A DNA stretch of 64,000 bases from Octopus vulgaris (lineage: Eukaryota), in contig OX597828.1 of the NCBI GenBank assembly GCA_951406725.2, positions 21,576,001 through 21,640,000 of the forward strand. Direction: 5' to 3'. The notes under the pieces were generated by a model. The model saw nothing but the letters and a program-made list of their open reading frames with translations. It was not told the DNA's origin and made no database searches. Positions 35,148 to 40,575 of the stretch are shown here, piece after piece (within the stretch, counting starts at the first letter, position 1; every line of letters begins with the position of its first letter). The position numbers and the translations under genes were made by a program.

Positions 35148-35192
35148 TTTTATACTGAATATAGAATAGCAGCTAAAACTTTTTTAAAACTA

Positions 35193-35284
35193 TAATACTT
35201 AAAGAAAACCTCTCTCATATAGTGCTTGCTCAATTCAGCTGAATTGAGCAAGCACTATATGAGAGAGGTTTTCTTTAAGTATTA
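35193..35284. repeat. 92-bp perfect spacer-less palindrome
   Basis: Centre TTCAG|CTGAA at 35238/35239, 46-bp arms, extendable to ~35175-35305. Confidence 0.95.
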
Positions 35285-35461
35285 GAAATAGTTTTAAAAA
35301 GTTTTTTATATTTCTAATGAGTTCAGTATGCGGCAAAGTATTTATTTTACTAAGCCCTTTTATATAATGTAATAATTTGAATTCGCCTTAAATGGTCCCT
35401 TTGCATACTGAACACTTGGTGAAATTGATTAATAATTAATTAATTTTACCCTCAATTGTTG

Positions 35462-35523
<62 letters not shown>

Positions 35524-36114
35524 ATATATGTATGTATATATGAATGTATGTATATAAATATACTTAGATATTGCTCTCTAGTTTCTGGAGATTCTTCGGC
35601 ATTTTTTTTTTTTTTTTTTTTTAACTCAACTCAACTCAACTCAACTCAAGCTAACATAATCTCTCCTTGTCTTTAATCTCAAGACTTTTGAACTCTACAA
35701 TCCTACTATACTACTCTTTTACTACCATCGGAGGATAAATTTATACAAATCTATATACAACCTGAAGAAAGAGGAACAACCCAAAACTAAATACTAAACC
35801 CAAGACTAGTTCTAAAACTAGTCCCGTGAGTACAATTCTTTTTTCTTGGTCTGTATCAAACACACCGCTCATCCCGATTGTACTAATTAGATTGTACTAA
35901 TTACACTGAACTCTCACACACAAGCCACGAATTTCCGAGTATATCGACACAAACTTTCCAACGGTGTATTCACTATTTACCGAGTATATCGACACAAACT
36001 TTTCAACAGTGTGTTCACTATTTTACATCAAGCCATCAATAACTGGTGTACACATACATACACACGCATACACATACATACATATATATATTACACAACA
36101 CTACCCCACTGAAT

Positions 36115-37389
36115 ATGGCCAATAATTTTCAAAAACGCCGCTGGGTTGAAAATGAAATTACTGCAATGATTAACGCTTGGTTCATCCATCAAAACGAAGC
36201 TAATGTTTATAGCAAAATAACTGAGGATTTAACGAAAAAATCCTTTCACAGATCTGTAAAACAGATAGAAAATAAATTAAAAGAAATTGTTAGGATATTC
36301 CCTATTTTTCACGCGCACATGGCTACACTAAAAGCCATTCTTGCCAACGAATCCAGTACAACAAATGACCAAATCCCAACAGGTCAGTGGTCACTTCAAC
36401 AGCAACAATCAGCTGACCTACTTCCATTGACAACAGCACCTGATGAACCAAGTCAAGTCTCACCTTCGCTACAGCAACAAAAACAACAACAACAACACTC
36501 TAATACTACCACTAGTCAAGTTCCAATGCTGCTACAACTCCCCACTACTGCCACAATAGGAAAATCACTACTACATCCGCGTAAAACCATCTGCCACTAC
36601 TACTCTCAAGGCAGCTGCAGATTTGACCACATACTGGCAAGCCAGAACCCACCATCACAAAATCAACAAGCTGCTTCTAACACCACCACCACCACCACCA
36701 CCACTACTACTACTGCCAAAATAGAAAAACCACTACTACAACCAAATAAAACCCCCTGCCGTTACTATTCTAAAGGCACTTGTAGATTTGGCCCCAGCGG
36801 CACAAACAAAAATGGACGCTGTGCTTTTCCCCACCCGACCTTATGTCGTAGACTTGCTATGGGCACCTGTCCATACGGTATAACAGGAAAAAATTGCCCC
36901 CACCTCCACCCCAAATACTGTCCTAAATACAGAATCTATGGTTCTGACCCTAAATACGGATGCATAAGAGGCAATGAATGCACCTTATTCCATCCTAAAC
37001 TGTGCCAAACTTCTGTCTCACAAAGGATGTGCCTGAACCCAGAATGCAACAACCACCATCTGAAGGGCACAAAACGATCACAGAATAGATATGAACAGGA
37101 ACAGAGGAAATCTAGGACAACAACAAGAACAAAATACAACCACGTTTCCCCTCCTACAATCAAACTACGTAGACAGAACCAGGAAAAAACACCAAATAAC
37201 GCCAACTTGAAATATGTATCCTCTGACCAAGTGGCAAACCAAACAAGTAACTCTTTTTTACTGACATACCTGGAAAATATGAAGGCCGACCTAAGCCAGG
37301 AGATCCAGCGAGCCATCACCAACCATCTATGCAAATCACAAGGACCACTCACCCATTACCAACTTCCCTTACCTCGACATTCCTGTTAA
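36115..37389 (+). CDS. LINE ORF1 protein: N-terminal Myb/SANT(trihelix)-like domain, Q/T-rich linker, four CCCH zinc fingers
   Basis: First ATG at 36115 (the track's 36046 start is a GTG in (CA)n). RRWVENEITAMINAW...YSKITEDL...RSVKQIENKLKEI fits the trihelix pattern. Fingers: C-x7-C-x12-C-x3-H, C-x7-C-x8-C-x3-H, C-x13-C-x5-C-x3-H, C-x8-C-x4-C-x3-H. Confidence 0.85.
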   Translation: MANNFQKRRWVENEITAMINAWFIHQNEANVYSKITEDLTKKSFHRSVKQIENKLKEIVRIFPIFHAHMATLKAILANESSTTNDQIPTGQWSLQQQQSADLLPLTTAPDEPSQVSPSLQQQKQQQQHSNTTTSQVPMLLQLPTTATIGKSLLHPRKTICHYYSQGSCRFDHILASQNPPSQNQQAASNTTTTTTTTTTTAKIEKPLLQPNKTPCRYYSKGTCRFGPSGTNKNGRCAFPHPTLCRRLAMGTCPYGITGKNCPHLHPKYCPKYRIYGSDPKYGCIRGNECTLFHPKLCQTSVSQRMCLNPECNNHHLKGTKRSQNRYEQEQRKSRTTTRTKYNHVSPPTIKLRRQNQEKTPNNANLKYVSSDQVANQTSNSFLLTYLENMKADLSQEIQRAITNHLCKSQGPLTHYQLPLPRHSC

Positions 37390-40337
37390 ATGTACGTGGC
37401 ATCAACCCATCAATTATTGCCCAAAAATGGAAGATCCCATATATAGAGAGTTGGCTTGCCGAAATGGCACATTGCTTCCCTTTCTTTATCCTTACCGAGA
37501 CTCACCTGAACAACACCCATATGGACGCAGAGGTGAAAATAAAAGATTTCACCATTGTTCGTGCGGATCGCACAGACCGAAATAAGGGAGGGACAGCCAT
37601 CTTTATCCATGACTCCTTTTCACTTGATGCCAAGGACACATTTTCCAATGGCTACTGTGAATCGGTATCAGTATACAACAAAGCCAACGACATAACCATT
37701 GTTGGTCTTTACAGGCCTCCCCAGGCACCTCTAAAGTACTTTGAAGAGTGCCTTAGCAAAGTCAAGTCCTTCCTTCGGAAGTACCACTCCGGAAACATAA
37801 TAGTGATGGGTGATTTTAACCTCCCTCATGTGAACTGGCCCACAAATACTCCGAAGTTAGGCAAGTGCTCTACATCAGATAGGGCAGCAGCAGAACTGCT
37901 CTTTAATCTGATGGATGAGTATTTCCTGACTCAGCTAGTGCTTGAACCAACGAGACAGAATAAAACGATCTTGGATCTGGTACTGACCAATCACTCTAGC
38001 TACGTTCACAGCATTTCAGTCGAAAAAACTCTCCTCTCAGACCACGACATGGTACTCTGCAATCTTAATTCCCGACGTATAAAAACCAAACCAGCCAATC
38101 CCACTCCATGGCACCCATTTGACAACATAAATTTCCACAAAGCGGACTGGAGAACAATCAGAAAGGATCTGTCTTCCATCGACTGGTCTTTTACTCTCAA
38201 TTCCCCTCATATTGAGACCGCGTGGCAGCACTTTGAAACCATTGTCACCGACACATGCTCTAAACACGCTCCCAAGAAATCTACTAACACAAATAGAAAC
38301 CGGCTCCCTAAAAAGAAAAAAACACTCATCAGGCGCATCAAAAGACTCAACAAAAAAATCAACCAATTAAAATATTCCCACACGCATCATCCACATTCAA
38401 CAACAATGAAAAGACTAGAGCTGGAAAAACTTCATCTGCAGACTAACATGAAAACCTCCATTGAAAATCAAAGAGCTGTGGAGGAACAATGGGTAATCAA
38501 AAACATCAAACAGAACCCAAAAGTGTTCTATTCTTATGCAAATAAGCATAGAACCACTGTCTCACCTATTGGGCCATTGATTGATGAAAACGGCATTCCC
38601 CAACACGATGCTAAAGAAATGGCAGAAATACTGCAGAAACAATATTGCTTTGTCTTCAGTGTTCCCACTGATATTGATGTGAGGGAAACGAACGAAGCTG
38701 ACTCCCAACACAAAATCGCAGACATAACCTTCACTGCCACCGACATCGTAGCAGTAATAAATGAGGTCAAACATTACTCCGCTGTAGGCCCTGATAGATT
38801 TCCCGCCAGTCTCCTGAAGGAATGTAGATATCAACTTGCAGTCCCTCTGACCAACCTCTGGAGAAACTCGTTAGACGCAGGTTATATACCGAAAAAGTTT
38901 CTATCCCAGTCGGTCATCCCGGTTTTCAAACAGGGAAACAGATCCCTCGCAGTCAACTATCGCCCAATCTCACTCACCTCCCACATCATTAAAGTGTTTG
39001 AAAGAGTGTTAAGATCAAGGATAGCTGACTTCCTGGAGACCCACAAACTCCTAAATTCAAATCAACATGGCTTTCGCTGTGGCAGGGACTGTCTAACACA
39101 GCTCTTACACCACATTGAAGATGTACTCAAAGCCTTGGGAACAGGTTCGAACTCTGACGTCATATACCTTGACTTCAGTAAAGCGTTCGACAGGGTAGAC
39201 CATAACATCCTACTCTCAAAATTGGCAAATGTTGGAATCCGTGGAAAAGTTCTACACTGGATTCAGTATTTCCTAGCGAATAGAACACAACATGTTGTAG
39301 TTGATGGAGTCCACTCAAACCCAGCAAAAGTCACCAGCGGTGTTCCCCAGGGAACTGTTTTGGGTCCGCTACTCTTCATAATTTATGTAAACGACCTTTC
39401 CAGTGTCGTACATCACTGCAAAGTGAAAATATTCGCTGATGACACTAAGCTCCAGCAAATCGTCAATGAAGAAGCAGACCGAACTCAACTCCAGTCTGAC
39501 CTATATGCTGTGAGTCAATGGGCAGACAGAAACAAAATGCAACTGAATGAGGGAAAATTTGAGCTGATGCATTTTGGAAGAAATTCCTCACTAAAACAAC
39601 CATACTCTCTTCCTTCAGGGGAACCGCTCACAGCCTCTAACAATATCAGAGACCTGGGTGTAATTGTTGATGACGATCTCAGTTGGAGTGCACACATCAA
39701 CAAGAAGGTCGATACAGCTCGTAGGATGAGTTCCTGGATCTTAAGAACTTTCCGGTCCAGAGAACAAGGTGTCATCATACCACTTTTTTCATCCTTTGTA
39801 CGGCCACACCTTGAATACTGCTGCCCACTGTGGTCTCCTCACACAAGACAAAACATCTCCAGAATTGAGTCACCCCAGAGGGCTCTCACTAAACAAATTG
39901 AAGGCATGGCTGCTCTCGACTATTGGGATCGCCTTAAAGCCTTGAAACTTTACTCCCTCCAGCGTCGCCGTGAGCGGTACATCATTTGTACGATGTGGAA
40001 AATATACCGCCAACTTTGCCCAAACGACCTAAACATTAGCTTCAAGGTTCATCCGAGACTTGGACCACGGGCTATACGTCCCCTGCCAAATTCAAGATCA
40101 CAACATACATGTACACTGCAACATAATTTCTTTTCCTCAACAGGCCCTGTCCTATTTAACATTGTCCCGAGGGAGATCAAAGAGGAAAAGGATCCCATCA
40201 ACTTCAAACAGAGTCTGGATAGATTCCTTCAAAGAATACCAGACAAGCCACCCATAATTGGATACAACTCACCCAACAAGAACTCACTACTTGAACAAAA
40301 CTGGATACAACTCACCCAACAAGAACTCACTACTTGA
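37329..40337 (+). CDS. LINE ORF2: apurinic-like endonuclease + reverse transcriptase (1002 aa)
   Basis: APE motifs LNVRG, LTETHL, YRPP, GDFN, LDLVL, SDH. RT motifs YRPISLT, QHGFR, YLDFSKAFD, GVPQGTVLGPLLF, FADD. C-terminal RPHLEYCCPLWSP and YSLQRRRERY. Confidence 0.97.
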   Translation: MQITRTTHPLPTSLTSTFLLNVRGINPSIIAQKWKIPYIESWLAEMAHCFPFFILTETHLNNTHMDAEVKIKDFTIVRADRTDRNKGGTAIFIHDSFSLDAKDTFSNGYCESVSVYNKANDITIVGLYRPPQAPLKYFEECLSKVKSFLRKYHSGNIIVMGDFNLPHVNWPTNTPKLGKCSTSDRAAAELLFNLMDEYFLTQLVLEPTRQNKTILDLVLTNHSSYVHSISVEKTLLSDHDMVLCNLNSRRIKTKPANPTPWHPFDNINFHKADWRTIRKDLSSIDWSFTLNSPHIETAWQHFETIVTDTCSKHAPKKSTNTNRNRLPKKKKTLIRRIKRLNKKINQLKYSHTHHPHSTTMKRLELEKLHLQTNMKTSIENQRAVEEQWVIKNIKQNPKVFYSYANKHRTTVSPIGPLIDENGIPQHDAKEMAEILQKQYCFVFSVPTDIDVRETNEADSQHKIADITFTATDIVAVINEVKHYSAVGPDRFPASLLKECRYQLAVPLTNLWRNSLDAGYIPKKFLSQSVIPVFKQGNRSLAVNYRPISLTSHIIKVFERVLRSRIADFLETHKLLNSNQHGFRCGRDCLTQLLHHIEDVLKALGTGSNSDVIYLDFSKAFDRVDHNILLSKLANVGIRGKVLHWIQYFLANRTQHVVVDGVHSNPAKVTSGVPQGTVLGPLLFIIYVNDLSSVVHHCKVKIFADDTKLQQIVNEEADRTQLQSDLYAVSQWADRNKMQLNEGKFELMHFGRNSSLKQPYSLPSGEPLTASNNIRDLGVIVDDDLSWSAHINKKVDTARRMSSWILRTFRSREQGVIIPLFSSFVRPHLEYCCPLWSPHTRQNISRIESPQRALTKQIEGMAALDYWDRLKALKLYSLQRRRERYIICTMWKIYRQLCPNDLNISFKVHPRLGPRAIRPLPNSRSQHTCTLQHNFFSSTGPVLFNIVPREIKEEKDPINFKQSLDRFLQRIPDKPPIIGYNSPNKNSLLEQNWIQLTQQELTT

Positions 40338-40575
40338 ACAAAACTTGACTTAAACAGGATTCGAATAATCCTATCAGGTGGTGCTATTAAGTTAGACATG
40401 GCCTGGACAAATCTCTGGTCGAAACATATCTAAGTTTTCTAAGTTTTCTAAGTATATATATATATACAAACGCAGAATACATATATACGTATACGTAGAC
40501 ACACGCATATTTACATATACATATCTATCTATCTATCTATCTATCTATGTCTATATCTATATCTATATATATTTA

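Follow-up and report, generated by a model that had tools for sequence, protein, structure and literature searches.

Does the protein encoded by the first open reading frame (ORF1) of a LINE help to choose where the element inserts? ORF1p is usually regarded as an RNA chaperone. A survey of the CR1 lineage (Metcalfe and Casane 2014, PMC4120745, cited here, like the other papers, from the available portions of its text) documents shuffling of PHD domains between lineages and suggests a targeting role for PHD, and guidance of integration by PHD-like ORF1 extras stands there as an open suggestion. The question is raised anew by a LINE in the stretch of DNA analyzed here, a 64,000-nt window of the Octopus vulgaris genome (contig OX597828.1, positions 21,576,001 to 21,640,000 of the forward strand; coordinates below are those of the window). 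A first-pass annotation of the window described an ORF1 with an N-terminal Myb/SANT-trihelix domain and four CCCH zinc fingers and proposed that it guides insertion into (TA)n. Our reading, to which we give a probability of about one half, is that this is a Myb-headed young CR1-type LINE whose fingers likely bind RNA and whose Myb head likely tethers the particle to DNA and likely adds to a preference for (TA)n.

A very young LINE family

ORF1 (36115-37389, + strand) is open over 424 aa, as annotated, and ORF2 (37329-40337, +) is stop-free over 1002 aa from its first ATG, with an APE endonuclease at about 37368-38078 (Exo_endo_phos_2, E=5e-17) and a reverse transcriptase (RT) at about 38952-39665 (RVT_1, E=3e-31). 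The element had been called intact, which holds for both reading frames but not for the 5' end, where this copy lacks the approximately 70 nt with which other copies of its family (family A) begin. Their place is taken by a single-copy 35-nt piece and a T run (35567-35622, +), which may have arisen by template switching or by capture of a fragment; an Rfam scan of this junction gave no real match. The rest of the 5' UTR (35623-36114, +) begins with (AACTC)n, and a TA-rich tract (35464-35562) lies 5' of the insertion. At the other end, the 3' UTR (40338-40453, +) closes with two to three copies of a 9-11-nt unit of the CTAAGTTT type, immediately followed by (AT)n (40454-40467); the 3' end of family A is this short tandem-repeat tail, with no poly(A).

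An APE and RT in ORF2, a short tandem-repeat tail and frequent 5' truncation (in 13 of 29 family A copies the truncation point lies no more than 1.5 kb from the query) are the features of an APE-type LINE. In the RT tree the element falls in a clade of CCCH-ORF1 elements (support 100/100) that adjoins elements with PHD/RRM-like or esterase-like ORF1s (labels assigned by eye). These RT neighbors, together with what is established about the group, make it a probable CR1-type LINE.

Genomic copies were collected to assess divergence, as the first-pass annotation had proposed, and they describe a very recent family. A search of the 2.8-Gb genome with ORF1 returned 117 matches, many of them 93-99% identical, and all 147 scored RT matches were at least 97% identical, with 42 tying for the top score. 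The 3' segments of 29 family A copies were mutually identical over 351 bases, and both ORFs were open in two further copies (L316 and L318) among 20 long copies fetched. The near-identical RTs and 3' segments, together with the further copies with open ORFs, indicate that family A was mobile very recently, and by these sequence measures it is very young. ORF1 was covered by contigs in two of four runs guessed to be RNA, and partly in the others, which does not amount to expression evidence.

Several structural peculiarities accompany these copies. A near-perfect palindrome of about 130 nt (35175-35305), with the look of a small hairpin element, lies between two (TA)n tracts in the window and also beside the family A copy at L018. 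The end of ORF2 contains an exact 43-nt tandem duplication (40259-40345), and ORF2 length varies between family A copies (993 versus 1002 aa). At one locus (L009/L323, G000:C8:68145600-68151956), ORF1 is in frame with ORF2 as a single 1367-aa ORF. At L100 and L101, an old family A copy is split after ORF1 codon ~44 by one common insert; several near-identical loci of this type on different contigs are probably carried in a larger repeat.

ORF1 begins with a Myb/SANT-like trihelix domain

In ORF1, the Myb head is followed by a Q/T-rich linker, four CCCH units, a basic segment and a helix at the C-terminus. In a scan limited to the first 80 aa, residues 8-62 matched Myb_DNA-bind_4 (PF13837) with 28.5 bits (E=2e-6, cut-off 27), and AlphaFold predicted a three-helix Myb fold (from 11 sequences; pLDDT 83) with helices at residues 12-25, 31-41 and 48-80, in agreement with the first-pass annotation. 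The domain thus delimited spans aa 8-80 (36136-36354, +) and has a long third helix. An Arabidopsis GT-1 trihelix structure came first in fold searches with this model by both Foldseek (probability 0.99, TM 0.55, E 0.22) and VIA (Z 7.6, 74 residues aligned, rmsd 7.7), both weak matches. In the Atlas, the best match of the Myb head was the PF13837 cluster (0.90), and the whole ORF1 protein had no match.

A chance resemblance to Myb of a generic helical or coiled-coil N-terminus is very improbable, even though the whole ORF1 protein scores only 23.9 bits against PF13837, below the cut-off, a PDB sequence search was headed by GCN4-type coiled coils (all weak), and the helices were arranged in a non-Myb manner in a whole-protein model built from a PHD-type alignment. 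A fold search with the whole protein was not informative about the N-terminus. Against chance stands the finding that PF13837 was the best Pfam match in all seven related, divergent N-termini, above cut-off in two and reaching E=1.5e-10, and that older copies scored 34.9 and 41.7 bits. Judged by coordinates and ranking, 38 of the 43 genome matches above the PF13837 cut-off were mostly copies of this ORF1. In addition, Myb/SANT/trihelix structures fill both fold-search lists, and W10, E14, W22, Q50 and K54 are invariant. Myb, SANT and trihelix domains carry a bulky aromatic residue in each helix, the three-Trp pattern; here the first two positions are the invariant W10 and W22. Two points count against the assignment: the third aromatic position is degenerate (L, I, T or K), and the charge of the domain differs between families.

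The Myb head is also the part of ORF1 with the lowest dN/dS (0.15, 0.18 and 0.26 against three older copies), compared with 0.45 for the fingers and 0.78-1.04 for the basic tail, and between subfamilies the Myb domain retains ~80% identity while the linker is replaced. Sequence profiles, selection and the predicted fold together confirm the ORF1 N-terminus as a Myb/SANT-like trihelix domain under purifying selection.

A plausible source of this head is the Harbinger Myb-like protein/MSANTD gene group, in which a SANT/Myb/trihelix domain of the same Pfam type resides in a helper protein apart from the enzyme (available text of PMC9392472). The nearest host-gene match in a small search was L193 (E=7e-5), and inspection by eye of 30 kb around the host Myb matches L193 and L194 revealed no Harbinger-like transposase ORF of at least 130 aa.

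The CCCH array is widespread and normally joined to PHD

The four consecutive CCCH fingers of the first-pass annotation were borne out by four ligand sets at aa 215-315: C215-C223-C236-H240, C244-C252-C261-H265, C269-C283-C289-H293 and C297-C306-C311-H315. Fingers 2-4 (36844-37059, +) are the three-finger core that is conserved in ORF1s of this type, with ligands retained in 101, 102 and 101, respectively, of 102 relatives, a set of sequences of at least 330 aa taken from the HMMER matches listed. Finger 1 (36757-36834, +), absent from that alignment as read by eye, is an extra, finger-2-like unit, and a partial fifth copy lies within the Q/T linker (aa 157-172; 36583-36630, +) and is missing in an older subfamily. 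The finger region (aa 241-320) was modeled with pLDDT 95-98. Its best Pfam zf-CCCH score was 24 bits (cut-off 29), and the top Foldseek rows for the ORF1 model were the tandem CCCH RNA-binding proteins CPSF30, ZAP, MBNL and Nab2, all with E of about 1 or worse and with different finger spacings. By analogy with what is known of this finger family, the array likely binds the RNA of the element, and we infer that the conserved C-terminal helix (aa 380-406; 37252-37332, +) oligomerizes.

The array turned out to be common in this LINE lineage, so that of the architecture previously described as unusual only the Myb part remains so. A full HMMER search returned 1,640 protein clusters at E<=1e-3, and the best 150 of the 1,640 all match the finger region. 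Among the 102 long relatives, a PHD-like pattern fits 73 and Pfam recognizes PHD in 22, with Myb_DNA-bind_4 found by Pfam in none. Of 80 metagenome loci picked by RT likeness, 10 had a finger array upstream of ORF2, and four of these reached far enough to include the PHD region. We considered whether the helical N-terminus of the PHD-type ORF1s could be a Myb homologue and rejected this, as it gave no alignment with the Myb profile (hhalign probability 0.7%). The lack of an alignment, together with PHD in the relatives, indicates that Myb replaced the PHD part. For ORF1s of this kind, the widespread ground state is PHD followed by three CCCH fingers.

The Myb head occurs on two RT branches

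A genome search with the ORF1 N-terminus gave 150 matches, and among 20 fetched we found two further Myb-headed families. Family B (L091, L093-L096, L098 and L110) has an ORF1 of ~300 aa with a Myb domain and a single CCCH finger, and its ORF2 is ~37% identical to that of family A. Family C (L092, L097 and L099) has an ORF2 ~60% identical to that of A and shares its 3' UTR and tail type; its ORF1 has a Myb domain and two finger-4-like units without the three-finger core, and is linked to the family C 3' end by one frameshifted locus (L099). The same genome also holds a young family with a PHD plus three-CCCH ORF1, family D (L281-L315, e.g. L304:847-5280), with tandem repeats in the 5' UTR, an (AAATG)n tail and some open ORF2s.

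RT trees built from 36 and 30 rows chosen from 84 placed A and C on one branch and B on another, beside D and other PHD/CCCH elements. None of 200 bootstrap trees united A and C with B, and an AU test, with the group set by ORF1 type after a first tree, rejected a single Myb clade (p=0.0011). The endonuclease tree also separates A and C from B; the idea that family B took its endonuclease together with the Myb module is not supported by that tree. The finger and C-terminal helix of family B score higher against those of D and its relatives than against those of A (85 versus 64 and 33-37 versus 24, respectively). Since the rest of ORF1 tracks the RT tree and the Myb head does not, the module likely moved between lineages, and the simplest reading of the sequences is that an ORF1 head was exchanged between LINE lineages in this host.

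Word-index protein searches returned one, four and one matches, and the Myb module matched only a gene model of Octopus bimaculoides with a family-B-like N-terminus; having found almost nothing, these searches give little information on taxonomic range. That gene model (P0156) fuses a family-B Myb domain to an unrelated coiled-coil protein and is either an artefact of gene prediction or an ORF1 head that has been exonised.

Insertions of Myb-headed families often adjoin (TA)n

The flanks of the collected copies proved to be TA-biased. For each family we took the 30 best-scoring 3' ends, using queries without the tail, and scored (TA)4 no farther than 70 nt from the 3' anchor; ends that had no anchor were left out (A 1, B 0, C 4, D 1 and E 7), and the sets of A-D each include their own query locus. 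Among the Myb-headed families, (TA)4 was present at 18/29 (A), 21/30 (B) and 23/26 (C) ends, or 62-88%. It was present at 7/29 ends (24%) of the PHD-headed family D and at 3/23 ends of family E, another CR1-like family, compared with a background of 9.5% in the window, which D thus also exceeds. Control windows 500 nt farther away gave 6 (A), 11 (B), 1 (C), 1 (D) and 2 (E) matches.

The 5' truncation junctions showed the same tendency (A 9/13, B 7/13, C 12/17, D 3/14 and E 1/12, with 11 non-junction rows left out of the family E set). The pooled Myb families differed from D with p=6e-6 at 3' ends and p=0.006 at 5' junctions, values that count copies, where by lineage the comparison is of two Myb origins with one PHD family; B versus D at 5' junctions alone was not significant (p=0.12). 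Pairwise identity was 0.998 in D and 1.000 in A; the two families are equally young, so the gap is not explained by age.

The preference is a loose one. Eleven of the 29 family A 3' ends lack (TA)4, and family A shows no fixed insertion site of the R2 kind. Nearly all family A tails continue into 'AT', including those at non-TA sites, indicating that microhomology between tail and target matters. Moreover, a SINE that has no ORF1 and a B-like 3' end had (TA)4 at 28/61 ends (46%; some insertions were counted twice) and at 9/23 among less biased loci. A second SINE end had (TA)4 in only 3/32 cases, so adjacency to TA is not a general property of insertions in this genome. The likeness between the 3' end of the first, very common SINE and the family B 3' UTR suggests B as its partner LINE.

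A possible role for the Myb head in target choice

The earlier proposal of ORF1-guided (TA)n targeting therefore stands in part: TA adjacency is real and is stronger in the Myb-headed families than in the PHD-headed one, but an ORF1-less SINE is also TA-biased and two Myb lineages are set against one PHD family. In the mechanism that we favor at about even odds, recombination within ORF1, at a point upstream of the finger-coding part, would have passed the Myb module between lineages. The CCCH fingers would hold the RNA of the element, the C-terminal helix would build ORF1 oligomers, and the Myb head would contact DNA and keep the particle near AT-alternating tracts, where the ORF2 APE would nick and the tail would prime on a short AT match with the target. 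Counting against guidance by the head, family C is the most TA-biased and yet has a near-neutral Myb domain (pI 6.1-8.7), compared with the basic domains of A and B (pI 9.5-10.4).

The main competing explanation, which we hold to be somewhat less probable but a serious contender, is that ORF2 and the RNA tail suffice to produce the TA bias, through a preference of APE for flexible AT-alternating DNA and 3' microhomology, and that the bias evolved separately in A/C and in B, leaving the Myb head with a general role, for example in contacting chromatin, in nuclear import or in binding proteins, as PHD presumably has. The TA bias of the ORF1-less SINE fits this explanation, as do the joining of tails to targets via 'AT', the difference of the D and E tail sequences from those of A and C, and two precedents in the available text of the literature: Harbinger Myb-like proteins also act in nuclear import and protein binding (PMC9392472), and the human L1 nick consensus is set by the APE domain (PMC12503042). 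It accounts less well for families B and D, which have related endonucleases and tails with 'AT' junctions, yet differ in (TA)4 adjacency (70% versus 24%), and for the way in which the bias follows the head of ORF1 rather than the tree of ORF2. As for the SINE, it may be served by ORF1 in trans, and only the likeness of the tails points to its partner LINE. An improbable third explanation is that the Myb head binds the 5' UTR or promoter of its own element and regulates transcription, as the Harbinger protein binds its own transposon ends (available text of PMC9392472). The 5' end of family A is indeed well defined and kept between subfamilies, but families A, B and C have 5' UTRs that look unrelated by eye despite their common Myb domain.

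Tethering by the Myb head, as a contribution to target choice, also has a bolder form that we regard as tentative and less likely than not, namely that ORF1, and not ORF2, sets the insertion site: a Myb module captured by one octopus LINE would have replaced PHD, jumped to a distant LINE lineage of the same host and redirected both into (TA)n microsatellites as safe sites, on the base of a widespread PHD plus three-CCCH type that is absent from the ORF1 classifications searched. What is new here is the capture of a Myb-like head by the ORF1 of a LINE and its presence in two lineages; the putative link of this head to insertion preference is suggestive. The genome amounts to a natural swap experiment, with young Myb-headed and PHD-headed families that have unlike landing preferences, and because these families lie side by side the targeting question is testable by domain swap. 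Users of LINE-based gene insertion would also take an interest in a targeting module that is small and portable.

Relation to known systems

The CR1 survey distinguishes PHD, RRM, CCHC, transposase-22, esterase and zf/lz kinds of ORF1, and its available text contains neither "CCCH" nor "Myb" as a word (PMC4120745). The octopus LINE shares with the PHD-ORF1 CR1 elements described there an APE and RT in ORF2, a separate ORF1 and exchangeable ORF1 modules, including a modular N-terminal domain where those elements have a chromatin reader proposed for targeting; it differs in having no RRM or CCHC, a CCCH array and Myb in place of PHD. A conceivable published home for the PHD plus CCCH type would be CR1 subgroup 2 (PHD only) of that survey, whose listed members are mosquito elements. 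Measured against ORF1 types I-IV of Khazina and Weichenrieder, as given in the same text, the 424-aa ORF1 has no RRM plus CCHC, transposase-22, PHD(+RRM) or esterase (Pfam to E=10), and it would be an unclassified type V. A CCCH-array ORF1 represented by ~1,600 sequence clusters extends the classification of ORF1 proteins.

R2, also a non-LTR element, uses a Myb domain and zinc fingers for target DNA (available text of PMC12503042), and its Myb domain bears a weak likeness to the ORF1 head (sequence E 0.22-0.29, fold Z 5.8). R2 has one ORF with a restriction-like nuclease and inserts at an exact site in the rDNA, whereas the octopus LINE has its Myb domain in ORF1, an APE nuclease and a loose targeting preference. 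Harbinger is a DNA transposon; the ends of the transposon are bound by its own Myb-like protein, which also imports the transposase (available text of PMC9392472). A helix-turn-helix of DNA-binding type (HTH_1) is present in the ORF1 of Coccomyxa L1/Zepp-like elements, but it is of the LysR type, in an algal element of the L1 clade and without a CCCH array (available text of PMC5203782). Zenon lacks ORF1 and has a poly(A) tail (available text of PMC13343379), unlike the octopus LINE with its 424-aa ORF1 and tandem-repeat tail.

The literature searched, by title, start of abstract or term counts and outside Repbase/Dfam, subscription papers and the supplements of PMC5203782, contained no description of a LINE whose ORF1 carries CCCH fingers or a Myb domain. 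In their available text, PMC9115989 treats octopus RTE elements and not the Myb-headed LINE family, and PMC10294476 and PMC11203168 hold no ORF1 domain content for this family. The available text of PMC3708506 covers 2A and PHD only, and four PHD-CCCH ORF1 relatives identified here (P0058, P0113, P0114 and P0117) are extended at the N-terminus by a segment with a 2A-like motif.
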